Below are positions 15,293-32,268 of a stretch of 40,151 bases of DNA, piece by piece; within the stretch, counting starts at the first letter, position 1; each line of letters opens with the position of its first letter. Origin of the DNA: a virus. The notes under the pieces are model-generated. The model was not told where the DNA came from, made no database searches, and saw only the letters and a program-made list of their open reading frames with translations. Position numbers and translations under genes: made by a program. The stretch lies in the IMG/VR virus record IMGVR_UViG_3300045988_085414, one strand, 5' to 3'.

Positions 15293-16360
15293 ATGGCTTT
15301 CGAGGATAAAACACAAAACAATATTATGATTGATTTAAAAGCTGCAATCGAACCGGACACAAGCACCGAAGAAGGCACACTTATAGATCATTCATTTCGG
15401 GGCGCGGCGGCAGAATTTGAGAAGGCATATATCGAATTAGAATTGATAGATCAAAACGGATATGCAGAAACAGCCGACAGAGAGCATTTAATATTGAGGG
15501 CGAAAGAAAAGGGTATAACACCATACGCAGCCACTAACGCGGTTTGGAAGGCAGAGTTTAACACAGAAATAGCAATTAACGCCCGCTTTTCGGCAGGCGA
15601 ATTAACTTATATATGCACAGAAAAGATAACACAATTAACGTACCGGCTTATGTGTGAGCAGACCGGCACCGGTGGAAACGTAAAGCAGGACGATTTAACA
15701 CCAATAGAATATATTGACGGTTACGAAAGCGGAGAACTAAAAGAACTTTTAACACCTGCAAGGGGCGAGGAAAAAACCGAAGATTTCCGCGCGCGTTATC
15801 TTTCCATAGTTGCAGCAGCGCAGGCATTTGGCGGCAACCGGGCGCAGTACAAAGCAATCATGCACAAAATAGAGGGCGTGGGCGCGTGTAAAATATATAG
15901 GGTTACAGCACAGGAAAAGAGGATAAAGATTTATTTTCTTGACAGCACATATAAAACGCCAAACAGCACGCTTGTTTCAGACGTGCAGAAAATAATTGAT
16001 CCGATAGAGCAGCAGGGAGAGGGCGCAGGAGAGGCTGCAATATATCATGTGGTAGATATATTAGCCTGCACATCGGAAAGCGTAAAAATAGAGGCAAAAA
16101 TAACGATAGATACCGGCTATACATGGGCGGATCTATTGGCAAGCGTGCAGGAAAAAATCGACGGTTATTTTTTAGAGCTTGCGAAAAGTTGGGAGAATGA
16201 ACAAAATATAACGGTAAGAATATTAAGGGTAAACGCAGCGATCGCAAGTGTGGAAGGCATCATAGACGTACAGAACACAGCTTTAAACGGCAGAGAAGAA
16301 AACCTGCTGTTAGATCCGAACGCAATACCGGTTAGGGGCGTGATATTATGCAAACAATGA
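15293..16360 (+). CDS. Baseplate J-like protein (XkdT-like)
   Basis: 355 aa. Size and position are typical of baseplate J. Confidence 0.7.
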   Translation: MAFEDKTQNNIMIDLKAAIEPDTSTEEGTLIDHSFRGAAAEFEKAYIELELIDQNGYAETADREHLILRAKEKGITPYAATNAVWKAEFNTEIAINARFSAGELTYICTEKITQLTYRLMCEQTGTGGNVKQDDLTPIEYIDGYESGELKELLTPARGEEKTEDFRARYLSIVAAAQAFGGNRAQYKAIMHKIEGVGACKIYRVTAQEKRIKIYFLDSTYKTPNSTLVSDVQKIIDPIEQQGEGAGEAAIYHVVDILACTSESVKIEAKITIDTGYTWADLLASVQEKIDGYFLELAKSWENEQNITVRILRVNAAIASVEGIIDVQNTALNGREENLLLDPNAIPVRGVILCKQ

Positions 16361-17217
16361 TTTTAAATCACTATCCACCAGTAATAAAGCAAATAAAGGA
16401 TATACAGCAAATCGCCAAAGCGGAGGACATTGAATTTACAAAATTGAATACCTCTATTACGGAAGTAATACGGAATATGTTTGTATTTACAGCAGACGAA
16501 ACCGGAGTAAAACGGTTTGAAAAGCTGTTAGGGATTACACCAAAGGCGGCGCAGAGTTTAGACGATAGAAAAATATATATTATATCAATGATGAACCGGC
16601 GCAAAATGAGCCTAGAAGAATTAACGGCGATGCTATCCAATTATTCCGAGGGAATAAGGTTAATAAACGATATGTCAAATTTTGAAATGATCGTAGAGAT
16701 TAACACAGATGCGGGAAGTTTGGAAACAATAAACAGTATCATTGATGAAATTTTACCATTAAACATATATTTTGAATTTGCCCTGCAAAGGGAAACCACC
16801 ATAAAATACAAATTGGAAGATTTGATCTTTATGGCATTTGAACCGGCAGCAGGAGAAAATGAGCATTGCAATTTTGATAACAACATAACAGCAATAAAGA
16901 AAGCCGACTATACGCAGAGTGTAGCCGGTTTTTCTTATGTAAACAGTTATGAAAACGCCGGGGCTTTTGTGTGCGGCGTTGAGTGCTGTTTAGCGATGCA
17001 GGCACCATTTGAAACGCAGGAAAGCGTTGTAAACATAGAAACAGCCACAGAGGCAGAAACAACACCGATAAGAACGTGCGGAGAAGAAAACGCAATAATC
17101 GGGGAAGATACACCGTTTACAATGGCAGAAAGCGCGGTAACGGTGCAAGAGGACGTAACGGCAGCAGTTACGCAGTTAAAAATATGCGGCACAGATTACG
17201 CAAGAGAGGAGGGCTAA
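16348..17217 (+). CDS. Tail protein (XkdU/YmfQ-like, DUF2313-like) with an acidic C-terminal extension
   Basis: The N-terminal region YPPVIKQIKDIQQIAKAEDIEF...ADETGVKRFEKLLGI resembles the DUF2313 family. Overlaps the baseplate J gene. Confidence 0.6.
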   Translation: MQTMILNHYPPVIKQIKDIQQIAKAEDIEFTKLNTSITEVIRNMFVFTADETGVKRFEKLLGITPKAAQSLDDRKIYIISMMNRRKMSLEELTAMLSNYSEGIRLINDMSNFEMIVEINTDAGSLETINSIIDEILPLNIYFEFALQRETTIKYKLEDLIFMAFEPAAGENEHCNFDNNITAIKKADYTQSVAGFSYVNSYENAGAFVCGVECCLAMQAPFETQESVVNIETATEAETTPIRTCGEENAIIGEDTPFTMAESAVTVQEDVTAAVTQLKICGTDYAREEG

Positions 17218-17218
17218 A

Positions 17219-17500
17219 ATGTTAAAAGATCGGCTTATAGACTATACGGAAAGTATCGTAAAGCGTGCGACATATACCATTAACGGAAAAGTGAAAGAAG
17301 GAACCATAGGAAAGATAATAAAAGACACCGATAACATCACTTTTTATCTATACATTGATGATAACGAGCAGGGAAAAATCACAAATGCGAAATTATACGA
17401 TGTAAACGGCGATTTATTGGAAAGCAAAGACTATAACACGCCAAAAGATACATTAGCAACCGCAACAATAGGCATCAGAATAACGATAAAACGCGAATAG
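17219..17500 (+). CDS. Hypothetical tail-module protein
   Basis: 93 aa ORF, tightly packed, with an RBS-like ggagggc upstream. Confidence 0.5.
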   Translation: MLKDRLIDYTESIVKRATYTINGKVKEGTIGKIIKDTDNITFYLYIDDNEQGKITNAKLYDVNGDLLESKDYNTPKDTLATATIGIRITIKRE

Positions 17501-17514
17501 GAGGAAAAAGATAA

Positions 17515-18006
17515 ATGTATGATCTGATATTATGGAAAAACCGCCGTACTGAAAAAGCAAACACATACGCGGTAACACAGAACCCGGATAACACGATTAC
17601 ATTAACGCCGGTTCCGGGCAGGATTATCGAACCGGGTACGGGGTTTAATCAACAGAACATGAACCACATGGATAACGGCATAAACGAGGCTATGATTATT
17701 GCAAATATGGCGATCGTGCAGTTATTACAGCACCAAAGGGAATTAGAAAATACTTATTTCGAGGTTGGATCGGTGGAAGTAAAGAGCAAAGAAACGTACC
17801 CATTTAACACCGAGAAAGTAACAGTTGCATTAAAAGACGCACGCAATACATTAAATTATATTGTGTTGGCGTTTTGCGATAATTTGCAGCAGGGGCGCGC
17901 AATCAGAATTAAGGACAAGCAGTTAAACGGTTTTAAAATCGAGGTTGAGGACTGCCCGACGGAACCGGTAACGATAAAATATTTTATTTTTGGAGGTAAA
18001 ATCTAA
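17515..18006 (+). CDS. Putative tail fibre/collar protein
   Basis: 163 aa. The N-terminal GTGFNQQNMNHMDNGINEA pattern resembles conserved tail fibre N-termini. The RBS is ggaggaaaaag. Confidence 0.45.
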   Translation: MYDLILWKNRRTEKANTYAVTQNPDNTITLTPVPGRIIEPGTGFNQQNMNHMDNGINEAMIIANMAIVQLLQHQRELENTYFEVGSVEVKSKETYPFNTEKVTVALKDARNTLNYIVLAFCDNLQQGRAIRIKDKQLNGFKIEVEDCPTEPVTIKYFIFGGKI

Positions 18007-18359
18007 TGGCAAAACCAACAATCAAAGTAGTTGAAAAAAACGAGGGGCGCAAAATCGGTTACGAATTGGAAGGTAGCACCCTATGGATCGGCGATGCGAT
18101 CGCAATGAGATTACCGCGTTTGCAGACAGACGACACCGTTAAAAAAGACATTTGCGCCGATGCAGACGGCAATTTAGTTTTTGGATTGGGCGAAAATTAC
18201 GTTGCACAGGTTGAAATCCCGCCAAAGGAATATGAGTACATCGAGGGAGAGACAGACGCAGAAGGAAAAAAGACCGTTGAAAGAGTGCAGAAAGATTTTG
18301 ACATTTCAAAATGTACTTTAATATTATGGAGCATCGAGGAGGTATATATCAATGAGTAA
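18006..18359 (+). CDS. Hypothetical tail fibre-associated protein
   Basis: 117 aa, start overlaps the upstream stop (TAATG). Its end overlaps the DGR target start by 8 nt. Confidence 0.5.
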   Translation: MAKPTIKVVEKNEGRKIGYELEGSTLWIGDAIAMRLPRLQTDDTVKKDICADADGNLVFGLGENYVAQVEIPPKEYEYIEGETDAEGKKTVERVQKDFDISKCTLILWSIEEVYINE

Positions 18360-19404
18360 TTACGAAGATTTAAGAGGCGCAGCAGCAAACGAGGAAATTA
18401 TTTTAGACGATCAAGGTATTCCTTCGGTAATGGTAAAAGTACCGCTTGTTTATTTGGACGAGTTAGGGATCGGATCGGCACACACGCCGCACCCGGCTTT
18501 TATCATCAACGATAAAGTGGTGCCGTATATTTATGTTTCAAAATATATCAACGTGATCAAGAATAACCGCGCGTACTCTATCCCAAATCAGGATCCTGCA
18601 AACTGCATTACTTTTGATCGTGCGGTTGAGGTTTGTTATAACAAGGGTGCAGGTTGGCATCTTATGACAGCGGCAGAGTGGGGAGTATTACACAACTTAA
18701 TCACAGCACAGGGATTAGAGCCTAGAGGTAACACAAACAACGGCAGGCATCATGTAAAGACTTATGAGCATGGTGTATTAAGTCCGCAGAACCCGACAAA
18801 TGTTTACAGAACATTAACCGGAACCGGCGGCAAGGCATGGGAGGCATTGGGCGTATGCGATATTGTGGGCGACGTTCATAAATGGGTTGTAGCGCGTTTA
18901 GTCGACGGCGAAATTCAGATTGTACCGAACAATAACGCAGCAATCCACAAAACAGATTTAGGCGCAAACAGCAAGGCATGGAAAGCGATCCTGCAGGACG
19001 GTTCATTAGTTGCACCGGGAACAAACGGCACATTAAAGTTTGACTATACCGGAAACCCTGCAAATGCTACAAGTGGTTTTCATATCACAACAACCGTAGA
19101 GCATAAGCAGACAGACGACGGCGCGGGATATGGCGCGAAAGATTTCGGAACATTGACAGCAAAAAGCGGCGTAACAATCCCGGATATTTTAAAAGCATTA
19201 GCGTTATTCCCTAACACAGATAAAACCGGCAGGGGCTTTATATATTTTCGTAACAACGGCGAGCGGTTGCTTATTCGTGGCGGTTCTTATGGTCGTGGCG
19301 GTAGCGCCGGGGAGGCTCTCGGCGATTTCGACTACCCGCGTTCTCTCTCCTATGTGTCTGTGGGGCTGTTTTCCGCTTATGTGGATCCTGCGCTTTATGC
19401 GTAA
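18352..19404 (+). CDS. DGR target protein: receptor-binding tail fibre with an FGE/C-type-lectin-like fold and a C-terminal variable region
   Basis: 350 aa. The central CITFDRAVEVCYNKGAGWHLMTAAEWGVL pattern is FGE-sulfatase/CLec-like. The last 47 codons contain the VR matching the downstream TR. Confidence 0.9.
   Translation: MSNYEDLRGAAANEEIILDDQGIPSVMVKVPLVYLDELGIGSAHTPHPAFIINDKVVPYIYVSKYINVIKNNRAYSIPNQDPANCITFDRAVEVCYNKGAGWHLMTAAEWGVLHNLITAQGLEPRGNTNNGRHHVKTYEHGVLSPQNPTNVYRTLTGTGGKAWEALGVCDIVGDVHKWVVARLVDGEIQIVPNNNAAIHKTDLGANSKAWKAILQDGSLVAPGTNGTLKFDYTGNPANATSGFHITTTVEHKQTDDGAGYGAKDFGTLTAKSGVTIPDILKALALFPNTDKTGRGFIYFRNNGERLLIRGGSYGRGGSAGEALGDFDYPRSLSYVSVGLFSAYVDPALYA
19264..19378 (+). repeat. 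DGR variable repeat (VR)
   Basis: 115 nt, in frame with the target gene, aligning without gaps to 19901-20015. There are 14 mismatches, all opposite TR adenines. Confidence 0.95.
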
Positions 19405-19411
19405 TTCCTGC

Positions 19412-19435
19412 GGGTGTATGCGGCAGCATACGCCC
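19412..19435 (+). promoter_or_regulatory. Hairpin 8 nt downstream of the target stop codon; candidate DGR target-recognition element
   Basis: gggtgtatgc-ggca-gcatacgccc forms a 10-bp stem (one G-T pair) with a 4-nt loop. Confidence 0.6.
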
Positions 19436-19467
19436 TATTTCTGAAAATGACGAGGACATAAAACAAA

Positions 19468-19872
19468 ATGCAAAGAAATTTCAGAGCGACAGCAAAACCA
19501 CCCGAACCCAAAGACGATCTTTTGATTATGAAGAAAACAAGAGAAATGATCGCATACGGTCACGATTGCCTATATAACAAACAATTTCCGAGAAATCAGC
19601 GTATAGGAAACGCGATTGGTGCGCAGATTGAAAAGTCAATGTATGAAATATTAGAAGGTTTATCAGATGCAGCCAAGAAAGAACATAAGAAAACGGCATT
19701 AACGCAGGTTGATGCAAAAATCTATAATCTAAGGCAGCTTTTAATGATTGCCGTAGATCCAAAGATGAATACAAGGGGTGTTCTGATACCGCTTGACGAT
19801 CAACGCAGGTGGTGCGAGAAGTTGGAGGAAATGGGTAAAATTTTAGGTAGTTGGCTTAATAAGCTAAAATAA
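19468..19872 (+). CDS. avd: DGR accessory variability determinant (Avd), four-helix-bundle type
   Basis: 134 aa basic helical protein lying between the target gene and the TR, as in the canonical target-avd-TR-RT order. The start is uncertain; ATG 19528 is an alternative. Confidence 0.75.
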   Translation: MQRNFRATAKPPEPKDDLLIMKKTREMIAYGHDCLYNKQFPRNQRIGNAIGAQIEKSMYEILEGLSDAAKKEHKKTALTQVDAKIYNLRQLLMIAVDPKMNTRGVLIPLDDQRRWCEKLEEMGKILGSWLNKLK

Positions 19873-19900
19873 TAAATCAACTATGGGTAGTATGCCGTAA

Positions 19901-20015
19901 CGGTTGCTTATTCGTGGCGGTAATTATGGTAATGGCGGTAACGCCGGGGAGGCTAACGGCAATTTCAACAACCCGCGTTCTATCTCCAATGTGAATGTGG
20001 GGCTGTTTTCCGCTT
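19901..20015 (+). repeat. DGR template repeat (TR), non-coding, presumably transcribed with the 167-nt spacer up to the RT gene
   Basis: 115 nt with 22 adenines. In the VR-equivalent frame it contains 9 AAY codons. It sits in the avd-RT intergenic region. Confidence 0.95.
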
Positions 20016-20182
20016 TTCTCAATTAGTCAGCATACGCCGCAACACGCGGGCGGCGTACCGTACAGAGAGAAGAAAAGGGGCATATTACCCTGCTTATAGC
20101 AATATGAGCAAAACAAAAATTTCCATGAATACGGTTAGTAACGCAAGCGAAGGGCGTAACGCATGGAGAAATTAAGGTCATA

Positions 20183-21289
20183 ATGAAAAAATTTAACGTA
20201 ACATATGAACAGATCGCAAGTTATAGTAACATCTATGCCGCCTATTTAGATGCACGAAAAGGGAAAAGCGAGCGCAACGAAATAATGCGGTTTTCTTTAG
20301 AACTTGACGCGCATTTAAACGATTTATACAACGACCTGCAGGAGGAGCGTTACAAAGTAAGCGGGTACAGAATTATTTATGTACCAAAGAAACGGCTTAT
20401 TATGGCGTTACAATTTAGGGATCGTGTTTTACAATGGGCGGTTTATAGGCTACTCAATCCGCTATATGAGAAAACCTATATAAAAGATAGTTATGCTTGC
20501 ATCAAAGAAAGAGGCAGAGAAAAAGCAGCCTCCCGGCTGCAATATTGGTTAAGGCAGACAGAAAGAAAGCCAAAACAATATTATTACTTGAAACTTGACA
20601 TTTCAAAATTCTTTTACCGGGTAGATCACGAGGTTTTATTAAACATTTTGAAACGGCGCATAAAAGACAAGCGTTTAATAAAATTGTTTGATAAAATCAT
20701 CAATTCAGAGAAAAGAGCCTTCGGGTTGCCGTTAGGTGTAGATCCTTGCGAGATAGATCCGCGCGAAATGCTTTTCGATAAAGGTATGCCGATCGGTAAT
20801 TTAACAAGTCAGATGTTTGCAAATATCTATATGAATGAGTTAGATCAGTACCTAAAGCATGAATTACATTTAAAATATGTGATACGGTACGCAGACGATT
20901 GTATTATTTTACACGACAGCAAAGAGGAACTATGGCAGGTATTGGAGAAAGTTGAAACTTTCCTGCTTAAAAATCTGAAATTAAACCTAAATAACAAAAC
21001 CGTCATAAGACCAACAACCTGCAATATTGATTTTGTGGGTTATATAATAAACAAAGATGAAATAAGGTTAAGATCCGCAACAGTAAAAAGAATGAGATCC
21101 CGCATAAAGTACATTGTAAAAGCATACGAGCGCGGCGAAATGACCTTGCAGGAAGTCAACGCAACCATGCAAAGCTATTTCGGTTTAATAAAACATTGCA
21201 CAAATGAGGGATTAAGAGAAAACATTATCAACGGTTTTGTGCTGCATTGCACAGATGCAGCGCGAGCCAAAGCAAGAGAAAGCCGATAA
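20183..21289 (+). CDS. DGR reverse transcriptase
   Basis: 368 aa. Carries the DGR-typical motif PIGNLTSQMFANIYMNELD and the catalytic YADD (VIRYADDCIIL). Immediately downstream of the TR. Confidence 0.92.
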   Translation: MKKFNVTYEQIASYSNIYAAYLDARKGKSERNEIMRFSLELDAHLNDLYNDLQEERYKVSGYRIIYVPKKRLIMALQFRDRVLQWAVYRLLNPLYEKTYIKDSYACIKERGREKAASRLQYWLRQTERKPKQYYYLKLDISKFFYRVDHEVLLNILKRRIKDKRLIKLFDKIINSEKRAFGLPLGVDPCEIDPREMLFDKGMPIGNLTSQMFANIYMNELDQYLKHELHLKYVIRYADDCIILHDSKEELWQVLEKVETFLLKNLKLNLNNKTVIRPTTCNIDFVGYIINKDEIRLRSATVKRMRSRIKYIVKAYERGEMTLQEVNATMQSYFGLIKHCTNEGLRENIINGFVLHCTDAARAKARESR

Positions 21290-21324
21290 GGCTTTATTTT
21301 TTTGCACAAAAAAGGAGGCACACG

Positions 21325-21897
21325 ATGAAAGAAATTTTTATTGCTGCAAAGGCAGCAGCAACACAGACACCAAGCGCGGCGGGGTTGAGCGTATCAGCAA
21401 TTTTTACAGCGATCGCAGCGGTATTTGGAAAAATCCCGGTTATTTTAATTTTGTTCATGGCAGCGGTAGCACTTGACTATTTAACCGGGTGGATTAAAGC
21501 AAAGTATTTTTTAAAAGATTGGAACTCAAAAACCGGATTGCAGGGAATTATTAAAAAGTTAATGTATTTCGTTATGATTGGAACCGCCTTTTTAATCGGG
21601 TGGGGGATCCGCGAAATGGGCGGTAACATCGGCATTAACTTAGATTTTGCAATGCTGATCGGTTGGTACGTTACCGCCGTAATGCTAATAAACGAATTTA
21701 CGAGCATTTTAGAAAACCTTTATGTAATTATGCCGGAGAAGGTACCGGTATGGCTGATTAAGACATTAAAGGTTGCAGACAAACAGTTAGGCGACAAGAT
21801 TAACGATCTTGTATGCAAAAATCAGAATTGCGACACCTGCGAATTAAGCGCGCGTTGCAATCTGAAAAAATACACACCAAACAAGGAGGAAAAATAA
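21325..21897 (+). CDS. Holin (TcdE/holin family 4-like) with a Cys-rich C-terminal tail
   Basis: Start chosen at ATG 21325, behind aaggagg. Contains the holin-4 pattern LDYLTGWIKA...SKTGLQGIIKK...EFTSILEN and several TM segments. Confidence 0.8.
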   Translation: MKEIFIAAKAAATQTPSAAGLSVSAIFTAIAAVFGKIPVILILFMAAVALDYLTGWIKAKYFLKDWNSKTGLQGIIKKLMYFVMIGTAFLIGWGIREMGGNIGINLDFAMLIGWYVTAVMLINEFTSILENLYVIMPEKVPVWLIKTLKVADKQLGDKINDLVCKNQNCDTCELSARCNLKKYTPNKEEK

Positions 21898-21899
21898 CC

Positions 21900-22829
21900 A
21901 TGACAACAGAACAGAAAACATTTATTGAGAACATTGCAGCGGCAGCAAGAAAGCACGCCGCAAATTATGGCATCGCTGTAATTAGTCCAATCATTGCGCA
22001 GGCGATTAACGAAAGCGGGTGGGGAAAGTCAACACTTGCAGCAAAGTACCATAATTATTTCGGTATGAAGTGCGGCAGCGCATGGAAGGGAAAATCTGTA
22101 AATATGTCAACGTGCGAGGAATACGAGGTAGGCGTATTAACGCAGATTAAAGACAATTTCAGAGTTTACGACAGCTTAGAGGAAGGCGTAAAGGGCTATT
22201 TTGATTTTATCAGCGCGAGCCGTTACGCGAATTTAAAAGGTGTTACAGATCCAAAAACATATATTGAGAACATCAAAGCAGACGGTTACGCAACAAGTTC
22301 ACAGTATGTTAAAAACCTGCTTAATTTGGTAAGCGCGTACAATTTAACGCAGTATGATAACATCACAGCACAGCAGGGCAAAAAGAGCGTTGCAGAAATC
22401 GCGCAGGAAGTGATCGCCGGAGCGTGGGGCAATGGCACAGAAAGAAAAGAGAAGTTAGAGGCAGCAGGCTACAATTACGCCGAAGTGCAGGCAATCGTAA
22501 ACGAGCGCGCAGGAAATAAGACAGAAAACAAGGCAGACAACAAAAAGAGTATTGCGGAAATTGCGCAGGAAATTGTAGCCGGTAAGTGGGGTAACGGATC
22601 AGAGAGAAAGCAGCGTTTAGAGGCTGAAGGTTACAACTATGCCGAAGTGCAGGCAGCGGTAAATAATATTATGGGAAAATCGGAGCCAAGCAAAAAGAAT
22701 GTTGCAGAAATCGCAAAAGAGGTAATTTCCGGTAAATGGGGAAATGGATCAGAAAGAAAGCAGCGCTTAGAGGCAGCAGGCTATAATTATGCCGAAGTGC
22801 AGGCAAAGGTCAACGAAATGTTGAGATAA
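21900..22829 (+). CDS. Endolysin: GH73 N-acetylglucosaminidase domain plus three CW_7 cell-wall-binding repeats
   Basis: Start chosen at ATG 21900, behind aaggagga. Catalytic-domain pattern AQAINESGWGKS...YHNYFGMK. Three copies of EIAQEVIxGxWGNGxERKxxLEAAGYNYAEVQA. Confidence 0.9.
   Translation: MTTEQKTFIENIAAAARKHAANYGIAVISPIIAQAINESGWGKSTLAAKYHNYFGMKCGSAWKGKSVNMSTCEEYEVGVLTQIKDNFRVYDSLEEGVKGYFDFISASRYANLKGVTDPKTYIENIKADGYATSSQYVKNLLNLVSAYNLTQYDNITAQQGKKSVAEIAQEVIAGAWGNGTERKEKLEAAGYNYAEVQAIVNERAGNKTENKADNKKSIAEIAQEIVAGKWGNGSERKQRLEAEGYNYAEVQAAVNNIMGKSEPSKKNVAEIAKEVISGKWGNGSERKQRLEAAGYNYAEVQAKVNEMLR
22380..22829 (+). repeat. Three tandem coding repeats (CW_7 modules), starting near 22380, 22542 and 22692
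   Basis: The DNA-level repeat aaaaagaRNRttgcRgaaatYgc... recurs with periods of 162 and 150 nt. Confidence 0.85.
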
Positions 22830-22839
22830 GGAGGTAAAC

Positions 22840-23109
22840 ATGGCAGGGAACAACACCGCAGAGGCGCAGGAACCGATTAAAAAAGCAAAGGCGTATAAAG
22901 TTACCTCTAAAGCATTTACAAAGCGCAGAGAGGCAGCAGGAGAGGTAGCAGAGGCAAAAACAAAGGGTATTATGCCGGTACTCATTATTGAAGGAAACGT
23001 GTATAAAGCGTTTTATGAAACAGAACCAACAAAGGCAGCCGCGGAAAAGCTGTTAAAAGCTGTTAAAGATGCGGGATTAAGCGCAGAGATTAAAGAGTTG
23101 GAACAGTAA
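22840..23109 (+). CDS. Small protein with a SPOR-like pattern, possibly a lysis accessory
   Basis: 89 aa. The YKVTSKAF...A...GIMPVLIIEGNVYKAFYE...AA..LLKAVKDAGLSAEI pattern resembles a SPOR repeat. Follows the endolysin. Confidence 0.4.
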   Translation: MAGNNTAEAQEPIKKAKAYKVTSKAFTKRREAAGEVAEAKTKGIMPVLIIEGNVYKAFYETEPTKAAAEKLLKAVKDAGLSAEIKELEQ

Positions 23110-24462: not shown

Positions 24463-25497
24463 ATGAGAAGTTTTAAACATATATCATTTAACGATAGATT
24501 AAAAATAGAAGTATTGAGGAAAGCCGGGCATACACCTAAAGAAATCGCGGAAATACTGCATTTTCATATAAGCACAATATACAGAGAGTTAAAACGCGGA
24601 CAATTCGAGGCGTTAAACTCTGATTTGACAACAGAAATAAGATATAGCCCGGATATTGCGCAGGAATACATGAACGGTGTTTTATCGGCAAAAGGCGCAG
24701 ATTTAAAAATAGGAAACGAAAAAGAATTTGCGGATCGCATCGAAGAAATAATAATAAATGAAGGGTACAGCCCGGCGGCTGCATTGGCAAAAGTAAAAGA
24801 GGAAGGAATAGATTTTACAGTATGCGTAACAACTTTATATAGTTATATAGATAAGGGCATATTTTACAACTTGACATTAAAAAACCTGCCGGAAAAGCGC
24901 AAGGGGGAAAAGAAACATAAAAGAAAAACGACACAAAAGAGGGCAACCAAAGGGGAAAGCATCGAAAATAGACCGGAAGAAATAGACACAAGGGAAACCT
25001 TCGGACATTGGGAAATGGATACCGTAGTAGGCGCGCGGGGAGTGTCTAAAAAATCTTTATTGGTTTTAACAGAAAGAAAAACACGCAAAGAGATTATTTT
25101 TTTACTTAAAGAGCATACGGCGGCAGCAGTCGTAAAGGCATTAGACAGATTAGAGAGGAAAACAGGGGCAGCGTTCAGAAAGATTTTTAAAACAATAACG
25201 GTAGATAATGGATCAGAGTTTGCAGATTGGCAAGGAATGGAAAGATCAAAGAGAAACAAAAAGAATAGAACAAAGGTTTATTACTGCCACCCATATAGCA
25301 GTTGGGAACGTGGCAGCAACGAGAACCAAAACAAATTAGTACGCCGCCACATTCCAAAAGGTGTAAATTTTGACGATAAAACACAGGGCGATATAGATAA
25401 TATAGCGGAGTGGATCAATAATTACCCGCGCCGCTTATTCGAGTATCAATCGGCAGAAAAATTATATAATGATGAATTAAAGAAAATTGCAGCTTAA
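24463..25497 (+). mobile_element. IS30-family DDE transposase gene, apparently intact; element ends not resolved
   Basis: 344 aa. N-terminal HTH (PKEIAEILHFHISTIYRELKRG) plus DDE-region hallmarks HWEMDTV, ITVDNGSEF and SWERGSNENQNKLVRRHIPKG. Confidence 0.85.
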
Positions 25498-25686
25498 AAG
25501 AACATCTAAGAAGGCGGCGGTATTCGTGCGCCCATTTTTAAATACACATAACAGCATATCAAGAGCCGGATCCGACACCAACACCCATTAAAAACATATA
25601 ATTATACAATATGCACAAATAAAGTTGCTTTGATATGTGCATATTGCTAAATGTGAAAAAACATGAAAAAACTTTCGCATTAAATG

Positions 25687-25715
25687 TTGACATTTTCATT
25701 GCTAGGTTTTAAAAT
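25687..25715 (+). promoter_or_regulatory. Candidate promoter (TTGACA-17-TAAAAT)
   Basis: -35 at 25687-25692 and -10 at 25710-25715, directly upstream of two terminator-like hairpins. Confidence 0.5.
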
Positions 25716-25717
25716 TA

Positions 25718-25825
25718 AATGCGAAAAGAGTTAATAAAACTCTATCGCATTTATTTTTTTACCTACAAGAAAGTATAGAAAAAATGCGGTTAGAGCGTAA
25801 AAACTCTAACCGCATTTTTATTTTA
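25718..25825 (+). ncRNA. Two tandem terminator-like hairpins: candidate small RNA or attenuator leader
   Basis: Hairpin 1 at 25718-25753 (aaatgcga..gagtt / aactc..tcgcattt). Hairpin 2 at 25781-25818 is a perfect 15-bp stem (aaaatgcggttagag / ctctaaccgcatttt). Each is followed by a T run and then ACC. Confidence 0.4.
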
Positions 25826-26050: not shown

Positions 26051-26070
26051 AGGCGGCAAAGGTCGCCCAT

Positions 26071-26143
26071 GCGCTTTTAATTTAAAGGGATAGAATACCA
26101 CCCTCCGAAGGTGGCGGTGCGGGTTCAATTCCCGCCGGGCGCA
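26071..26143 (+). tRNA. tRNA-Arg(CCG)-like cloverleaf with a weak acceptor stem
   Basis: Folded by hand. The anticodon arm is ccacc-ctCCGaa-ggtgg and the T arm is gcggg-ttcaatt-cccgc. The D arm is attt/gaat with GGG in the loop. U8 and U33 are present. The acceptor stem gcgcttt/cgggcgc has 4 Watson-Crick pairs, 2 G-U pairs and 1 mismatch. No CCA is encoded. Confidence 0.55.
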
Positions 26144-26148
26144 TTTGT

Positions 26149-26597: not shown

Positions 26598-27335
26598 TTG
26601 GGTTATTTTAAAACCACAGTAAGAGCAGGAGCCACGATTGAAGTAACAAAGAGTTATACAAAGAGGATCGGGGTAAAGATAAAAAAGGATAGGGAAAAGC
26701 CAACAGCCGAGGAAATGGAAAAGGTTAATCAAATGAACGCAGAGAGAACCCTCCGGCTAAAGATCAATGCTAATTTTGGAGTAGATGATCCATTTATCAC
26801 ATTGACATACAGGAAAGACGAAAGACCAACACCAAAGCAGGCAAAGAAAAATATTAAAAAAGTAATAGACAGCTTGCGAAAAGAGTTTAAAAAGTTGGGC
26901 GCAGATCTGAAATATATCAATGTGACGGAATATAAAAATAAAGCTATACATCATCATTTATTGATTAACCATATTGAAGGGCAGGACGTTTCTAAAATGG
27001 TTCGCAGATTGTGGAAGTTTGGCAGACCGGATTTTAAGTATTTGGACGATACCGGACAATATAAGGATTTGGCGGCGTACCTCATAAAAGAAACATCAAA
27101 GACCTACAAAGAGAACGACGGAGGGCATAAGCAAAGATACAGTTGCAGCCGCAATTTGATAATGCCAACACCAAAGACAGAAATTATAAAAAAGGCGCAA
27201 AGGTGGGCAGCAGATCCAAAACCGATAAAAGGCTATTACATCGACAAAGACACAGTATATAACGGTGTGGATCCGTTTACCGGTAGAGAATACCAAAAAT
27301 ATACAATGGTTCGGCTATCCGGTAGCGGTGGTTAA
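26598..27335 (+). CDS. HUH-superfamily rolling-circle replication initiator (Rep)
   Basis: 245 aa with a TTG start. All three motifs are present: motif I FITLTY, motif II (HUH) IHHHLLIN, and motif III AAYLIKETSK (Y..K). Confidence 0.8.
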   Translation: MGYFKTTVRAGATIEVTKSYTKRIGVKIKKDREKPTAEEMEKVNQMNAERTLRLKINANFGVDDPFITLTYRKDERPTPKQAKKNIKKVIDSLRKEFKKLGADLKYINVTEYKNKAIHHHLLINHIEGQDVSKMVRRLWKFGRPDFKYLDDTGQYKDLAAYLIKETSKTYKENDGGHKQRYSCSRNLIMPTPKTEIIKKAQRWAADPKPIKGYYIDKDTVYNGVDPFTGREYQKYTMVRLSGSGG

Positions 27336-27408
27336 TATTGTGGATAACTCACAACGAAAAACCGCAGCCGTCTAATAAATACTAGACGGCAGGGCGCGTT
27401 AAAAGAAG

Positions 27409-27909
27409 GTGGATAAATTGAACGTAAGCATATACATAAAAAGCAGTTTCAGAGGCAACCCAAGAGGCGCAGGAGAGGCAGCGGCGGTTATTGAGTTTAT
27501 AGACAAGCAAGGGAAAAGCCACAAGCGGCAGCAGCGCACACAGATAGAGGCAGACACGAAAAACGCCCTGCACTTAAAAATTTGCATCGCAGCGATGCGG
27601 GTATTATTAAAGCCTTGCGATATAACCGTTTTTATTGATTGCGACTATATGGCAAACGCCTGCAGGTTGGGTTGGTTGGACAAGTGGCAGCAGGACGGTT
27701 GGAAGAAAGCAAACGGAAAGCCACCGGCGAATGTTGAGGAATGGAAACAATTTTATATGCTAATGCAGATCCACACCGTAACATTTGAAAAATACAACAA
27801 CCGGTACGACACCGAGTTAGAGAAAATCATAGGAGGCGAAAATGAAGTACATGGGATCGAAAGCGAAGATCACAAAGTACATAGTGCCGATTATTCAACG
27901 AAAAATTGA
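27409..27909 (+). CDS. RNase HI-like protein with a degenerate active site
   Basis: Hand alignment to E. coli RNase HI. The GNPRGAG and DGWKKANGKPPANVEEW blocks are conserved. The D10 position is K (IYIKSS), the E48 position is H (TKNALHL), and the D70 position is retained (IDCDY). The start is uncertain (GTG 27409 or TTG 27418). Confidence 0.65.
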   Translation: MDKLNVSIYIKSSFRGNPRGAGEAAAVIEFIDKQGKSHKRQQRTQIEADTKNALHLKICIAAMRVLLKPCDITVFIDCDYMANACRLGWLDKWQQDGWKKANGKPPANVEEWKQFYMLMQIHTVTFEKYNNRYDTELEKIIGGENEVHGIESEDHKVHSADYSTKN

Positions 27910-28585
27910 CGAAAGCGGCGCGCGGTATTATGTGGAACCGTTCGCGGGCGGCTGCAATGTGATAGACAAGATAAAAGCAGAATACCGCATTGCATCAGAT
28001 AGCAATAAATATTTAATTGCGTTATTCCAACACTTGCAGGACGGCGGCGAATTGCCGGAACATATCACACGCGAAGAATATAACAAAGCGCGTGAGGCAT
28101 ACAGAACCGGAGATAACAGCCTGCAGGCGTGGTACATTGGCGCGGTTGGTTTCCTTGCATCATATAACGGCAGATTTTACGACGGCGGTTATGCGGGATA
28201 TGGAAAAGACAAAGGCAGGGTAAGGGATTATTACAGAGAAAGCCGCAATAACATTTTAATGCAGATGCAGCAGGGCGGTATATTCGGTATTGATTTCAGT
28301 TGTAGAGATTATAAAAGCTATACGCCGCAGGGCTGCGTTATATATTGCGATCCACCCTATGAGGGTACAAAAAAATACGGCAATGCAAAAGATTTTGATT
28401 ATTTGGAATTTTGGGAAACGATGCGGAAATGGAGCCGCCACAACAACATAGTTTTAATTTCGGAGTTACAAGCACCGGACGATTTTATAACAATTTGGGA
28501 AAAGGAGGTAGATCGCAGTATGAAAGCAAAAGAGCATTTCAGAGCGACAGAAAAATTATTTATGTGGGGGGGTAACGGTAAATGA
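27842..28585 (+). CDS. dam: Dam-family (D12 class) DNA N6-adenine methyltransferase
   Basis: MKYMGSKAKI N-terminus, SAM-binding motif EPFAGGCNV and catalytic DPPY (YCDPPYEG). Confidence 0.88.
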   Translation: MKYMGSKAKITKYIVPIIQRKIDESGARYYVEPFAGGCNVIDKIKAEYRIASDSNKYLIALFQHLQDGGELPEHITREEYNKAREAYRTGDNSLQAWYIGAVGFLASYNGRFYDGGYAGYGKDKGRVRDYYRESRNNILMQMQQGGIFGIDFSCRDYKSYTPQGCVIYCDPPYEGTKKYGNAKDFDYLEFWETMRKWSRHNNIVLISELQAPDDFITIWEKEVDRSMKAKEHFRATEKLFMWGGNGK

Positions 28586-29064
28586 TTAAGCGAGGCGACA
28601 TTTATTTTATTCGTGATACCCGCCAAAGCATCGGCAGCGAGCAGAAAGCAGACAGACCTGCGGTTATTGTTTCAAACGATGCAAATAACAAGCATAGCGG
28701 CGTTTATGAAGTTGTCTATATGACGACACAGCCGAAAACAGACCTGCCAACACATTTTATAACAAGTTCCGCGTTGAGAACATCAACCGTATTGTGCGAG
28801 CAGATAAGCAGCGTTTACGAGGAACGGATCGGCGAATGGATCGGAACACTCACACCGGAAGAAATGAAACAGCTTGACGAGTGTTTAACGGTATCGGTTG
28901 GCATAAATACAAAGGCAGAAAAAGAGCCTGCGGAAATGGAAAGCCTGCGGCAGCAGTTGGCAGAAATGGCAGACCGGCAGCAGGTAGCAGAAAAGCAGGC
29001 GAAAACATATAAAGAAATGTATGAGTTTCTTTTAAGTAAACAGTTAGGAACGAAAGGAAAATGA
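28582..29064 (+). CDS. MazF/PemK-family endoribonuclease toxin homologue with a ~50-aa coiled-coil C-terminal extension
   Basis: RGDIYFI...GSEQKADRPAVIVSND...VVYMTTQ...STVLCEQISSV...IGTLTPEEMKQLDECL follows the PemK/MazF pattern. ATGA overlaps link it to both neighbouring methyltransferase genes. Confidence 0.75.
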   Translation: MIKRGDIYFIRDTRQSIGSEQKADRPAVIVSNDANNKHSGVYEVVYMTTQPKTDLPTHFITSSALRTSTVLCEQISSVYEERIGEWIGTLTPEEMKQLDECLTVSVGINTKAEKEPAEMESLRQQLAEMADRQQVAEKQAKTYKEMYEFLLSKQLGTKGK

Positions 29065-30050
29065 TAAAAATACTTGAATTATTCGGAGGCATTGGTTCGC
29101 CACGATGCGCCCTTCGTAATATTGGAATACCGGTAAAGGCTATTGATTATGTGGAGATAGACGAAAAAGCGGTAAGATCGTACAATGCAATGTTTAAAAA
29201 CGAATTAGCATATAAAACGCAATCGGTCATAGGTTGGGATCTTAAACCGGATATTTTAATACATGGTTCGCCCTGCCAAGATTTTAGCATCGCCGGGCAT
29301 CAAGGAAAGGCAACAGCGGCAGCAGGAAGGATCAACAAAGGAAAAGGCGCAGACGAGGGATCGGGAACACGATCGAGCCTTATGTGGGAAACAATACACA
29401 TTATACAGCAAATGGGAGATTGGAAACCGCGTTTTGTTATTTGGGAGAATGTAAAAAATGTCACATCAAAACACATGATACATAACTTTAACCGTTATTT
29501 ATCAGAAATGCAGAAATTAGGATATACAAATAGTTTTCAAACATTAGATGCGCGCGATTTCGGATTACCGCAAGCAAGAGAACGAGTTTTTACAATATCT
29601 GTATTAAACGGCGAACCGTTCAATTTTGACGATTTAATAAAAACAGAAATGCGCGACATATCGGAATATTTAGAAAAGGACGTATCAGAAGTTTACGCAG
29701 TGACACAACCAAGCGTTTACAACGCAATAGGCAAAAAAGGAATACGCAGGGCGACGGTTATTAAAGATTATGCCTATACAATTACGGCAAGGCAGGATAG
29801 AACACCGGCACAGGTTATTGACTTAGGCGGTGGCAAATACAGGTATTTAACAGAACGTGAATGTTGGAGATTGCAAGGGTATAGCGACGCAGATTTTGAG
29901 GCGGCGGCAGCAGTACAGAAGAAAAACGGACGTTACACAATGGCATTATACAAGCAAGCGGGTAACAGCATACCGGTAACAATTTTTGAAAGTATTTTCA
30001 GAAAAATAATTTTAGGAGAAACAGCAGAAAAGGAGGCAAGCAATGAATAG
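29061..30050 (+). CDS. dcm: DNA cytosine-5 methyltransferase
   Basis: Motif I LELFGGIGS, motif IV GSPCQDFS, motif VI ENVKN, and C-terminal QAGNSIP. Confidence 0.9.
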   Translation: MIKILELFGGIGSPRCALRNIGIPVKAIDYVEIDEKAVRSYNAMFKNELAYKTQSVIGWDLKPDILIHGSPCQDFSIAGHQGKATAAAGRINKGKGADEGSGTRSSLMWETIHIIQQMGDWKPRFVIWENVKNVTSKHMIHNFNRYLSEMQKLGYTNSFQTLDARDFGLPQARERVFTISVLNGEPFNFDDLIKTEMRDISEYLEKDVSEVYAVTQPSVYNAIGKKGIRRATVIKDYAYTITARQDRTPAQVIDLGGGKYRYLTERECWRLQGYSDADFEAAAAVQKKNGRYTMALYKQAGNSIPVTIFESIFRKIILGETAEKEASNE

Positions 30051-30531
30051 CGTACACTTTAGCACCGGGAAGGACGATTGGGGAACACCGCAGGATCTTT
30101 TCGATGCACTCAATGAAGAATTTAACTTTACATTGGATCCATGCGCAGACAATAACAACCATAAATGCGCAAAGTATTACACCATAGAGCAGGACGGTTT
30201 GGCGCAGTCATGGGCGGGCGAAACGGTATTTTGCAACCCGCCGTACAGCAGAAAAACAAAAACAAACGCCGGTCAAATTGCATGGGTGCAAAAATGTTAC
30301 AAAGAGGCAACCGAGGGGGGGATCGTCGTGGTTATGCTTATACCCGCCCGAACAGATACGATCATGTTTCACGATTACATTTTAGGAAAAGCAGAAATAC
30401 GATTTATCAAAGGGCGTGTTAATTTTGAAATAGACGGACAGAAAAGCAAGGATCCGGCACCATTCCCAAGCATGATCGTAGTATTTAACGGAAAGCAGCC
30501 AACAAGTGCAGTAAAAAGCATTACAGCATAG
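30043..30531 (+). CDS. Phage-type DNA N6-adenine methyltransferase (small Dam_MT family)
   Basis: STGKDDWGTPQDLFDALNEEFNFTLDPCA followed by the catalytic NPPY (FCNPPYSR). Confidence 0.8.
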   Translation: MNSVHFSTGKDDWGTPQDLFDALNEEFNFTLDPCADNNNHKCAKYYTIEQDGLAQSWAGETVFCNPPYSRKTKTNAGQIAWVQKCYKEATEGGIVVVMLIPARTDTIMFHDYILGKAEIRFIKGRVNFEIDGQKSKDPAPFPSMIVVFNGKQPTSAVKSITA

Positions 30532-30543
30532 CAAGGGGGTTAT

Positions 30544-30804
30544 ATGGCAGAACTTTTAACGCCAAGTATTGCATACGCATATAACGAAAAGGCAAAAGCC
30601 CTGCCGTATAACGGTATGCAAGATATAGGAGAGCGCAGGAGGTTGCGGCAAGACCTGCAGGAGCGATGCGGCATAACGGAATTAGAGGCAATCAACATAA
30701 TAAACGGTTTCCACATAGATACATATTGCATTAAGTATTTACGAAAAGCACGCGAGGCAGCAGAGGGAACGCCGGAACCGACAAAGAAAAAGCGCAGACG
30801 ATAG
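30544..30804 (+). CDS. Hypothetical protein with a basic C-terminus
   Basis: 86 aa ORF, RBS gggggt upstream, tightly packed. Confidence 0.5.
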   Translation: MAELLTPSIAYAYNEKAKALPYNGMQDIGERRRLRQDLQERCGITELEAINIINGFHIDTYCIKYLRKAREAAEGTPEPTKKKRRR

Positions 30805-30811
30805 GAGGAAA

Positions 30812-31003
30812 ATGAAACCAAAGAAATTTTACATTATCAGACCGGAAATAGAAATAGAGTATATGAAAAATCCAATATTAGGGCGGCTTTATATCATGCT
30901 TAATTATTGGCGGTTCATAAAAGCCGGGTACTATTGGATATTCACATACAAGGTTTACTATATTGCGTTTCCGAGGATATACAGAAAGGCAGAAAATGAG
31001 TAA
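30812..31003 (+). CDS. Hypothetical small hydrophobic/aromatic protein
   Basis: 63 aa ORF behind aggagga. Confidence 0.45.
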   Translation: MKPKKFYIIRPEIEIEYMKNPILGRLYIMLNYWRFIKAGYYWIFTYKVYYIAFPRIYRKAENE

Positions 31004-31292
31004 AACAAAAAGCATTGTAACAGATTATGCCGGTATATGTTTCTTTTGTGGAAAACCGGCAGAATGTGAGCATCATTTATTATTTGGTAACGGCATTAGA
31101 GAGTTGGCAGAGCAGGACGGTTTAAAAGTTCCGGCTTGCAATAAATGTCATAACATGGGTAAACAGATTGAGCGCATACATGAAAATATCATGGCTGAAA
31201 AGTTATCTAAGATGTTAGGGCAGGCAATATATGAAAGTAAGATCGGAACGCGGGAAGAATTTAGAAAGCGTTACGGTAAATCGTATTTATAG
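30996..31292 (+). CDS. Hypothetical Cys/His-rich (zinc-binding-like) protein
   Basis: ATG 30996 is in frame within the track ORF. The pattern is CFFCG...CEHH...CNKCH. Confidence 0.5.
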   Translation: MSKTKSIVTDYAGICFFCGKPAECEHHLLFGNGIRELAEQDGLKVPACNKCHNMGKQIERIHENIMAEKLSKMLGQAIYESKIGTREEFRKRYGKSYL

Positions 31293-31301
31293 GAGGCGCA
31301 C

Positions 31302-31598
31302 ATGGCATTAACTGAATTAGTAAACGCCCTCCGGCAGCAGGCAATAAAGCAGCGGGAAAGAGAGGGCGAGCTATTAAACAACATTGCATATTTAGCAGGT
31401 TTAGAAACAGCAGAGGCAGCAGCCGACATATACGCAGCCGAGAAACACGCATATTCATTTGACGGCTATTTATATCAGCTTGAAAAGTTAAAAACGGTAT
31501 TAGCTGCAGGCGTACCGTCTGAAATAGCATTAGAGGCGGTAGATAGTTGCGCCGATGCAGACGCGATAATTAAATATTACAGAGGAGGCACAGCATGA
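31302..31598 (+). CDS. Hypothetical protein
   Basis: 98 aa ORF behind aggaggc. Overlaps the ssb start by 4 nt. Confidence 0.5.
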   Translation: MALTELVNALRQQAIKQREREGELLNNIAYLAGLETAEAAADIYAAEKHAYSFDGYLYQLEKLKTVLAAGVPSEIALEAVDSCADADAIIKYYRGGTA

Positions 31599-31993
31599 AT
31601 AAATGTATTTTCATGGGGCGTTTAACGAGAGATCCCGAAATACGTTATACGCAGAGCGAAAAGCCGGTTGCGGTTATAAATTACACATTGGCGGTTGACA
31701 GAAGATATAAAAGAGAGGGCGAGCCTTCGGCGGATTTTATAAATTTTGTAGCATACGGCGCAGCCGCCGAGTTTGCAGAGAAATATTTTAAGAAAGGCAC
31801 AAAGTTAGTAGTAGTCGCACGCTGCCAAACGAGAACATACACAAACAACGAGGGCAAGAAAGTTTATGTTACGGAATTTATCATAGAGGATCAAGAGTTC
31901 GCGGAAAGCAAGAGGGCAGCAGGCGGCGAACCGGAAACGGAAAAAGACGGTTTTATGCAGATGCCGGAAGGCGAAGAATTACCGTTTAACTAG
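31595..31993 (+). CDS. ssb: Single-stranded DNA-binding protein
   Basis: OB-fold pattern NKCIFMGRLTRDPEIRYT...ADFINFVAYGAAAEFAEKYFKKGTKLVV and an acidic C-terminal tip EGEELPFN. Confidence 0.9.
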   Translation: MNKCIFMGRLTRDPEIRYTQSEKPVAVINYTLAVDRRYKREGEPSADFINFVAYGAAAEFAEKYFKKGTKLVVVARCQTRTYTNNEGKKVYVTEFIIEDQEFAESKRAAGGEPETEKDGFMQMPEGEELPFN

Positions 31994-32004
31994 GGGGGGC
32001 AGAC

Positions 32005-32268
32005 ATGGAAGAAAAGAAACTAACCGCAAAAGAGAGGCGAGAACGCAATTTTTACGATGCGCAATACATGATCTACTATGAATTGCCGGTATTGATAAGT
32101 AAGATTTTTCACGCCGCATTTGCAAATTGCGAGTGCGGAACGCCGGTTATAGAAAAAGAAGATATGCAATTTATAGAAGGTTTTGTTAAAGCAACAGAAG
32201 ATACTTTTAATATTGCAATGGAAGGACAGAAAAAACAGATTGCAGAAATGCTAAAAATGCACGAATAA
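32005..32268 (+). CDS. Hypothetical protein
   Basis: 87 aa ORF. A G7 tract at 31993-31999 sits in the RBS position. Confidence 0.5.
   Translation: MEEKKLTAKERRERNFYDAQYMIYYELPVLISKIFHAAFANCECGTPVIEKEDMQFIEGFVKATEDTFNIAMEGQKKQIAEMLKMHE

Follow-up and report, generated by a model that had tools for sequence, protein, structure and literature searches.

The viral DNA examined here (IMG/VR virus record IMGVR_UViG_3300045988_085414), a stretch of 40,151 nt referred to in full as the window, almost certainly carries a complete diversity-generating retroelement (DGR) of the type known from phage BPP-1, and one that is active in nature. In order on the + strand, the element consists of a target gene with a variable repeat (VR) at its C-terminal end, a hairpin, the accessory variability determinant gene avd, a template repeat (TR), a structured spacer RNA and a reverse transcriptase (RT) gene (Table 1). 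A complete DGR had been proposed at this place in an initial annotation made from the sequence alone, and the three open reading frames (ORFs) on which it relied were all recovered on the + strand. Every feature of the DGR class that can be examined in sequence is present, with only the pair of IMH/IMH* (initiation of mutagenic homing) sites being unclear, and the architecture of the cassette was kept in relatives as far as 52% RT identity. All parts of the element, the adenine-restricted variation of its natural copies, the covariation of its RNA and the fold of its target protein were computed in this study. The initial annotation had named three tests by which its claim might fall, namely the affinity of the RT, the restriction of changes to adenines and the target's C-type lectin (CLec) fold. 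All three were run and turned out in its favour, which supports the central claim of a DGR.

Table 1. Position of the retroelement parts and associated features in the window.
Feature	Position	Strand	Remarks
DGR target (variable protein), 350 aa	18352-19404	+	TaqVP-like, FGE-subtype C-type-lectin fold
Variable repeat (VR)	19262-19378	+	encodes target residues 304-343 of 350; 14 (or 15) differences from TR
Hairpin/cruciform, candidate target-recognition element	19412-19435	+	10-bp stem, loop GGCA (DNA fold)
avd, accessory variability determinant, 134 aa	19468-19872	+	Pfam bAvd
Upstream strand of long-range RNA duplex	19885-19896 (GGGUAGUAUGCC)	+	ends 2 nt before TR
Template repeat (TR)	19899-20015	+	non-coding; 24 adenines, 22 of them in 19901-20015
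Structured DGR spacer RNA, Rfam RF02921 (RT-14)	20013-20166	+	cmscan
P1 helix	20015-20021 with 20066-20072	+	Rfam pairing, sequence-invariant
P2 stem-loop	20033-20041 with 20049-20057	+	covariation
Spacer strand of long-range duplex	20079-20090 (GGCAUAUUACCC)	+	pairs with 19885-19896
Small hairpin	20092-20109	+	downstream of duplex strand
A-rich run	20110-20122	+	between small hairpin and 3′ hairpin
3′ hairpin	20123-20166	+	covariation
DGR reverse transcriptase, 368 aa	20183-21289	+	R71, I204-GNLTS-Q210, Y236ADD239; Pfam RVT_1
Terminator-like hairpin and T-run	21279-21295	+	overlaps RT stop codon; pattern scan
IS30-like DDE recombinase (HTH_38 + rve)	24463-25497		of the carrier phage

Template and variable repeats

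One long direct repeat was detected in the region by a repeat finder, with copies of 115 nt at 19264-19378 and 19901-20015 that are 88% identical. The two copies differ at 14 positions, each of them an A in the TR and a C, G or T in the VR; the restriction to adenines holds for 14 of 14 mismatches. The chance of all 14 landing on the 22 adenines among 115 nt is 9e-13 (hypergeometric), and in the 350-aa ORF every mismatch occupies the first or second position of a codon. The repeat probably extends 2 nt farther in the 5′ direction, to 19262 and 19899, because sister loci that are nearly identical have either G or A at position 19263, which faces a TR adenine; the start at 19264 that had been given first is a conservative VR boundary.

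The TR adenines fall in nine AAY codons and in four codons with a single adenine (ATY, TAT and GAG codons). Stop codons are unreachable by mutation from these codons, and the reachable repertoire amounts to 15^9 x 4^4, or about 1e13 proteins. The final 20 nt of the repeat contain no adenine and are identical in VR and TR, after which the homology stops abruptly at 19378/20015. No second VR was found in the window.

Natural variation of the element

The variation of the element in nature was assessed in every fetched locus bearing the TR of the window (n = 21, including the window itself). These 21 loci contain 21 different VRs. Compared to their own TR, the VRs hold 245 substitutions at adenines and four at other sites, all four being T changes at the third codon position, and none of the 21 VRs has a stop codon. 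The mean share of A sites changed per VR was 48%, close to the misincorporation of 52% reported for the RT of Bordetella phage (bRT) at template adenines in vitro (PMC7826257). The TR was unchanged in 19 of the 21 loci. In locus L005, the TR carries a G>A change at the equivalent of window position 19948 and the VR has a T there; mutagenesis seems to have made use of the newly arisen template adenine.

A second assembly of this circular genome, from ENA (L001, ERZ27229803; 40,151 nt, rotated by 1,170 nt), was identical to the window over 9,107 nt save for 11 positions, all of which lie inside the VR and opposite TR adenines. Whether the window and L001 represent one sample or two could not be distinguished; in either case the VR changed and the remainder of the 9,107 nt stayed constant. 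In most sister loci the VR differs from that of the window at 10-18 of 117 nt (9-15%), compared with 0-3 differences (0-0.3%) in the 910 nt that precede the VR in the target gene for seven of the nine comparable sister loci. The exceptions for this stretch are L003, with 16 differences, and L005, which has an indel. TR, spacer and avd show 0-3 differences from the window among the nine loci.

At 90% identity, the cluster of the target holds 8,521 distinct sequences, that of a baseplate-J protein of the same length 1,075 and that of the RT 1,353. A single contig carried the exact target sequence; for the exact Avd and the exact baseplate-J protein the count was at least 1,000 contigs each. In the assembly collection, an Avd protein identical to that of the window has index entries in 12,564 blocks, most of them on long contigs.

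Substitution was not even over the TR adenines. The adenine of Tyr313 (TAT, window 19289) was substituted in none of the 21 VRs and that of Glu321 (GAG, 19313) in one of 21, the remaining TR-adenine sites being substituted in 29-81% of VRs. The near-fixation of Tyr313 and Glu321 suggests either purifying selection on structural residues of the GGxYGxGG region or site-specific fidelity.

Target protein

The target is a homologue of TaqVP (PDB 5vf4), with an E value of 1.2e-55 over residues 18-339 (phmmer). Its AlphaFold2 model, built on a 27-sequence alignment (pLDDT 82, pTM 0.87), aligned to 5vf4 with a TM score of 0.85 (Foldseek) and 34% identity in the structural alignment; the CLec-type fold predicted in the initial annotation was recovered in this model. 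TvpA (2y3c) and Mtd (1yu4) were weaker structural matches. Residues 125-160 were modelled with low confidence and aligned to part of insert 1′ of TaqVP. The protein falls in PHROG 2889 (E 1e-91), and its match to the Pfam family FGE-sulfatase is sub-threshold (16.4 bits versus 23.3). The variable residues would be placed on the ligand-binding face of a CLec-fold protein of the tail module, as they are in CLec DGR proteins.

The target gene closes the contractile-tail/baseplate module, ahead of the DGR and the lysis genes, and is preceded by genes for Baseplate_J, a Mu gp48-like protein, sheath and tube. From this gene position we infer a receptor-binding role, in which case variation of the VR would shift the host range. 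It is possible, though rather unlikely, that the DGR is real and that its target is some other ligand-binding protein of the virion or the cell surface (e.g. for decoration or adhesion) instead of the receptor-binding tail tip. PHROG 2889, the family closest to the target, has no known function, the TaqVP paper covers structure and not biological role, and TaqVP is said to be a single-domain monomer that lacks the trimerising domains of Mtd. A fibre shaft is not recognisable in the 350 aa of the target, and three small ORFs of unknown function separate it from the baseplate genes. The distal end of the baseplate/tail module, directly ahead of the lysis genes, is nevertheless the usual place of a fibre or receptor-binding protein, and the target partially matches a PHROG 'tail protein' family. 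Its N-terminus has no signal peptide or lipobox-like sequence, and the DGRs of BPP-1 and other phages act on tail-fibre proteins. A receptor-binding protein of the tail is the preferred identity of the target.

The three small ORFs (93, 163 and 117 aa; PHROGs 7177, 9010 and 8734) are located at 17219-18359, between the Mu gp48-like gene and the target gene. They may serve as fibre, adaptor or chaperone parts by which the CLec protein is joined to the baseplate. The cluster of the 163-aa protein also holds 278-aa proteins, one of which, from Parabacteroides, is named 'OmpA family protein'.

Hairpin and transcription signals

The hairpin that had been noticed just past the target gene starts at a distance of 7 nt from the stop codon and 33 nt from the end of the VR, and six of the 10 bp in its stem are G-C pairs. 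Guo et al. (2011, PMC3240598) characterised DGR target hairpins by a GC-rich stem of 7-10 bp, a 4-nt GRNA loop and a location 4-34 bp downstream of the VR, and showed for BPP-1 that both the structure of the stem and the sequence of the loop are important. All three features are present in the window, making this hairpin a candidate for a role in homing. The loop reads GGCA, GACA or GATA in the relatives, all within GRNA, and the stem has compensatory changes in L044 and an unrelated sequence in L019 and L045.

There is a minor chance that the hairpin is merely the intrinsic terminator of the tail operon, with no part in retrohoming. It fits the terminator pattern in a pattern scan, the GC-rich stem being followed by TATTTCTG, and the T-runs after the stem are clearer in the relatives. 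Against a terminator alone stands the agreement of stem, loop and distance with the published description (PMC3240598), as does the retention of the GRNA loop even where the stem sequence is wholly different. Moreover, terminator and homing roles are not exclusive, and a link between the two was raised by the authors of PMC3240598. The homing role is retained here as the better candidate.

A second terminator-like hairpin overlaps the RT stop codon and probably marks where the DGR transcript ends. Two promoter patterns were also seen. A near-consensus sigma-70-type pattern at 18298-18327 (TTGACA, 18 nt, TATTAT; 11/12 matches) sits in the preceding ORF, immediately upstream of the target gene start. 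The other, at 19699-19728 (TTAACG, 18 nt, TATAAT), lies inside avd, about 170 nt upstream of the TR.

Spacer RNA and long-range duplex

Between TR and RT gene, the initial annotation had recorded a spacer of 167 nt. The length is right (20016-20182), but the spacer is not inert: it forms a structured RNA, RT-14, that pairs with sequence upstream of the TR. The match to RT-14 covers model positions 1-144 of 144 at 65 bits, against a gathering score of 48.1. Of 16 Bacillota relatives scanned, with RT identities down to 52%, 15 have RT-14 directly upstream of the RT gene; in the sixteenth, L022, it is found downstream of it.

Within RT-14, compensatory changes were found in eight of the nine pairs of P2 when the Rfam pairing was mapped on a 14-locus alignment, and the 3′ domain of the spacer covaries as well (RNAalifold on a MAFFT alignment). 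The latter analysis recovered the 3′ half of RT-14 only, with L022 misaligned; P1 and P2 were taken from a cleaner alignment. The start of P1 coincides with the end of the TR/VR homology at 20015, as would be expected if cDNA synthesis begins at the 5′ edge of a template:primer helix.

A further helix, outside RF02921, brackets the TR. Its spacer strand lies within a conserved stretch left unpaired by the Rfam model and its partner lies in the gap between avd and TR. Over 12 distinct sequences, 98.6% of the cells in this long-range duplex were paired, with compensatory changes in nine of the 12 pairs, compared with at most 52% paired in controls with the partner slid. A minimum-free-energy fold of 19873-20182, which paired the 5′ part of the TR with the 3′ hairpin of the spacer, was rejected, as the local hairpin has covariation support.

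The helices of the spacer can be assigned provisionally, by position and analogy, to elements of the BPP-1 RNA. In a preprint on the BPP-1 ribonucleoprotein (RNP), an Avd-binding stem-loop just 3′ of the TR is followed by a template:primer duplex of TR and spacer (Sp), then by the 'cPRT Stop' duplex of the avd 3′ end with Sp, by a short stem-loop and adenosines, and finally by a single-stranded 'thumb ring' and a bRT-binding stem-loop. The long-range duplex of the window would be the counterpart of the avd:Sp 'cPRT Stop' duplex, and the RNA elements downstream of the duplex strand come in the same order in both. On balance we favour the view that RT-14 together with the covarying upstream duplex is the Bacillota-phage counterpart of the BPP-1 DGR RNA (with an Avd-binding stem-loop, a duplex of template and primer, a cPRT Stop and an RT-binding stem-loop), that the prophage of Agathobacter rectalis in which it resides is a natural system of DGR turnover and that a small deletion in its RT, described below, is tolerated.

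Two relatives have other arrangements. In L022 (4165-4322), the RT-14 RNA and TR both lie downstream of the RT, in a different gene order. L021, a metagenome-assembled genome (MAG) of Acidaminobacter, has two tandem copies of RT-14 upstream of the RT, at 2544-2687 and 2819-2963, which may correspond to two TRs.

Reverse transcriptase and Avd

The RT contains the motifs IGNLTSQ (residues 204-210) and YADD (residues 236-239). The signature [I/V/L]GxxxSQ of DGR RTs replaces the QGxxxSP of group II and retroviral RTs (PMC7826257). The top match in the PDB was 8ub7 chain A (127 bits, E 9.7e-36), which was recognised as the Bordetella bRT because I181, Q187, D215 and D216 match the residues named in the bRT cryo-EM preprint. 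A group II intron RT scored 81 bits, and the retron Eco8 RTs and Drt3a scored 26 bits or less. R71 and I204 of the window RT are equivalent to R74 and I181 of bRT, two residues that promote adenine mutagenesis (PMC7826257). The RT falls in PHROG 1423 (6.6e-128). Its closest annotated phage relatives are the RTs of Bacillus phage BalMu-1, Clostridium phage Saumur and Faecalibacterium phage FP_Lagaffe, with 46-49% identity (tblastn), and five Bordetella phage records were also among the matches; no RT in the phage collection reaches 60% identity. Both in the PDB and in the phage comparison the enzyme was nearest to DGR RTs, in line with the class given to it by the initial annotation.

The product of the gene designated Avd-like in that annotation scored 67 bits with Pfam bAvd (cut-off 40) and matched PHROG 3206, 'Avd protein of DGR' (1.5e-19), which confirms the designation; a sequence search of the PDB with Avd returned noise only. 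A protein identical to the Avd of the window is annotated in Agathobacter rectalis.

No observation contradicts the assignment to the DGR class, but several points can be set against the reading as a whole. There is no clear pair, as in BPP-1, of an IMH in the VR and an IMH* in the TR, which gives information transfer its direction, and a BPP-1-like element of (GC)14 plus 21 bp is not recognisable. P1 never varies, so covariation cannot confirm its pairing. The best NCBIfam match of the RT is a group II model (134.6 bits, cut-off 300), a DGR-RT model is absent from its NCBIfam matches, and every NCBIfam score of the RT is far below the cut-off, so that NCBIfam leaves this RT unclassified. Avd scored 69.9 bits with NCBIfam DivGenRetAVD, under the equivalog cut-off of 80. 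Also to be counted here are the terminator pattern of the hairpin and the dependence of the receptor-binding role on gene position. Finally, the RT of the window is without two residues (IY) that are found in the 370-aa sister RTs. The deletion, at window 20378-20383 (residues 66/67), changes 'IIYIYVPKK' to 'IIYVPKK', and it is the longer form to which bRT aligns gap-free.

The loss of IY looks like slippage in a 6-nt tandem repeat just ahead of the fingertips loop. It is probably tolerated, because all differences between the window and L001, the one additional genome that has the allele, are confined to VR adenine sites. There is very little to recommend the converse, that the cassette of the window is a recently inactivated relic with an RT deletion that abolishes enzyme activity, its VR changes having been inherited or made in trans by the DGR of a sister prophage. 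Such a reading would draw on the length of the RT, 368 aa versus 370 aa in nearly all sister RTs, and on the place of the lost residues, 2 residues before P68-K-K-R71 in the fingertips region that touches the incoming dNTP in bRT; VR diversification in trans by a co-resident related prophage is also conceivable. However, the only other assembly with the exact 368-aa RT, again L001, matches the window over 9.1 kb save for the 11 VR adenine sites. With the same RT allele in both and differences at VR adenines only, diversification postdates the deletion. In addition, the catalytic and signature motifs of the RT are all intact. An origin of the RT from a retron, a group II intron or an Abi/DRT defence system, with a coincidental repeat next to it, is already refuted: a group II RT/maturase model is its top NCBIfam match and JGI names it 'retron-type reverse transcriptase', but the NCBIfam scores are all far beneath their cut-offs, bRT leads among the solved RT relatives by 46 bits, IGNLTSQ takes the place of the QGxxxSP of group II/retroviral RTs, and an Avd gene, an adenine-only TR/VR pair and a DGR-type RNA all lie beside the RT.

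Proposed mechanism

A transcript over about 19885-20166 would present the TR flanked by structured RNA and bracketed by the long-range duplex. The stem-loop just 3′ of the TR (20033-20057) and the 3′ hairpin would probably dock Avd and RT, and P1 is probably the template:primer duplex from which cDNA synthesis is primed in cis. The RT-Avd complex would then copy the TR faithfully except opposite adenines, where any base may be inserted. The resulting cDNA would be substituted for the VR in the 3′ part of the target gene. Its homing is presumably directed by two features, the adenine-free homology with which the VR ends and the GRNA-loop hairpin 33 nt downstream.

The carrier phage

The carrier is a very common temperate phage with a contractile tail, whose hosts are Agathobacter rectalis and related Lachnospiraceae. 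Matching proteins have Agathobacter (Eubacterium) rectalis as source name. The best match among species-representative genomes is 'Clostridiaceae bacterium Marseille-Q4145', with 99% RT identity, and Lachnospiraceae MAGs reach 80-86% RT identity. The left arm encodes terminase, portal, ClpP-type protease, capsid, tail sheath, XkdM-like tube, tape measure, a YqbQ-like protein and Baseplate J. With sheath, XkdM-like tube, YqbQ-like and Baseplate J genes upstream of the target, the label 'PBSX-type contractile tail' used in the initial annotation is a fair one. A holin and a glucosaminidase/CW_7 endolysin are encoded downstream of the RT.

The accessory right arm (26598-34708) encodes a Rep_ORF2-G2P-like protein, DNA methylases of the Dam and Dcm types, a PemK/MazF toxin and ParA, together with a weak ParB_N-like match (24.2 bits, under the Pfam cut-off of 26.3). 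It is this content of Rep-like, ParA and weak ParB-like genes that gives a 'plasmid-like' impression. That description is misleading, as the phage was found integrated at nine different chromosomal sites beside the IS30-like DDE recombinase. The window ends in an exact direct overlap of 119 nt (1-119 and 40033-40151) that equals the assembler k-mer; hence it closes into a circle of about 40,032 bp.

In the nine integrated copies (L048-L056), the bacterial flanks differ in every case. The phage homology stops at window 25698-25702 in all four right-junction loci and in four of the five left-junction loci (8/9), the boundary in L054 being masked by a 1-nt indel. With junctions at one window position and varying flanks, the window represents the circular form, in which the two prophage ends are abutted. 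The nine copies lie inside bacterial contigs of 60-420 kb, and it is on bacterial contigs of this size that the exact recombinase and the exact Rep protein were found. It is the IS30-like DDE recombinase, and not a tyrosine or serine integrase, through which the phage inserts at many chromosomal sites. These data argue against maintenance as an extrachromosomal replicon (phage-plasmid); the circular form is consistent with an excised or a replicating state.

The abutted ends (region 25660-25760) consist of a right end, ...CTTTCGCATTAAATGTTGACATTTTCA, and, within about 8 nt, an imperfect inverted copy (TTTTAAAATTAAATGCGAAAAG). This arrangement resembles IS30 circle junctions. A phage-encoded tRNA-Arg (anticodon CCG) is located at 26070-26144, just inside the left prophage end.

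Significance and comparison with known systems

DGRs are routine in temperate gut myoviruses, and the element described here brings no new biology. A survey detected them in 84% of 6,616 human-gut Myoviridae genomes of high quality, with phages of A. rectalis among the largest viral clusters (PMC8241571); the element of the window is probably a further DGR that has already been catalogued in bulk. Its value is that of a clean example, with all canonical parts and with adenine-only hypervariation against an almost invariant background, in a phage whose host, Agathobacter rectalis, is among the most abundant human gut bacteria. The additions are modest and comprise a covariation-supported long-range duplex that brackets the TR and evidence from natural variation for DGR activity. 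RT-14 would gain a functional placement as a DGR spacer RNA, and the RNA architecture of BPP-1 would be extended to phages of Bacillota. The identical cassette turns up in thousands of assemblies from the human gut, and its VR is nearly unique in each. If the interpretation is correct, this A. rectalis prophage would be a convenient natural system in which to measure DGR turnover in vivo, and the copy in the window would show that the RT tolerates a 2-residue deletion beside the fingertips loop. A by-product concerning the carrier phage is its integration at many sites via an IS30-like DDE recombinase, instead of a plasmid life.

The DGR of BPP-1 is among the known systems closest to the element. 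The genes stand in one order in both (target with 3′ VR, hairpin, avd, TR, structured spacer, RT), and in both the changes from TR to VR are adenine-specific and mostly in AAY codons, which gives about 1e13 variants. Also shared are a hairpin with a GRNA loop downstream of the VR and an RT signature with the equivalents of R74 and I181. At the RNA level, both have a stem-loop just 3′ of the TR, a helix formed by the TR end and the spacer, pairing of the spacer with upstream sequence, and a stem-loop at the 3′ end. The two differ in several respects. The RT of the window is homologous to bRT but divergent, and its spacer RNA is RT-14, whereas that of BPP-1 is RT-10. The upstream duplex strand lies in the 26-nt gap between avd and TR, compared with a position inside avd in BPP-1, and the TR/VR homology ends at the start of P1, with no long IMH/IMH* segment. 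Where BPP-1 has the trimeric Mtd, the target here is TaqVP-like and consists of one domain; the host is a Gram-positive gut anaerobe.

With regard to the spacer, Weinberg et al. (2017) tied RT-10 alone to a DGR (the BPP-1 spacer) and speculated that other RT motifs occur in DGRs. The window spacer is a full-length match to RT-14 above the gathering score and adjoins an RT gene. Compared with the 2017 description, RT-14 is here located between TR and RT in 15 of 16 Bacillota DGR loci and after the RT in the other one.

TaqVP (5VF4) is the variable protein of a Thermus aquaticus prophage DGR and has an FGE-subtype CLec fold (TaqVP paper). The target shares near full-length homology and this fold with it, the C-terminal VR is in the equivalent place, and both proteins come from prophage DGRs of BPP-1-like organization. 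They differ in length (350 aa for the target, 381 aa for TaqVP), and their hosts and phages are unrelated. Among phages of Bacillota, the DGRs of BalMu-1, Saumur and FP_Lagaffe have the closest annotated phage RTs. At the DNA level, window positions 16000-23000 had no match in the phage collection (megablast). A phage-related DGR of Eubacterium rectale DSM 17629 was illustrated by Guo et al. 2011 (PMC3240598); it comes from the same host species as the phage of the window and reportedly has the same kind of hairpin.

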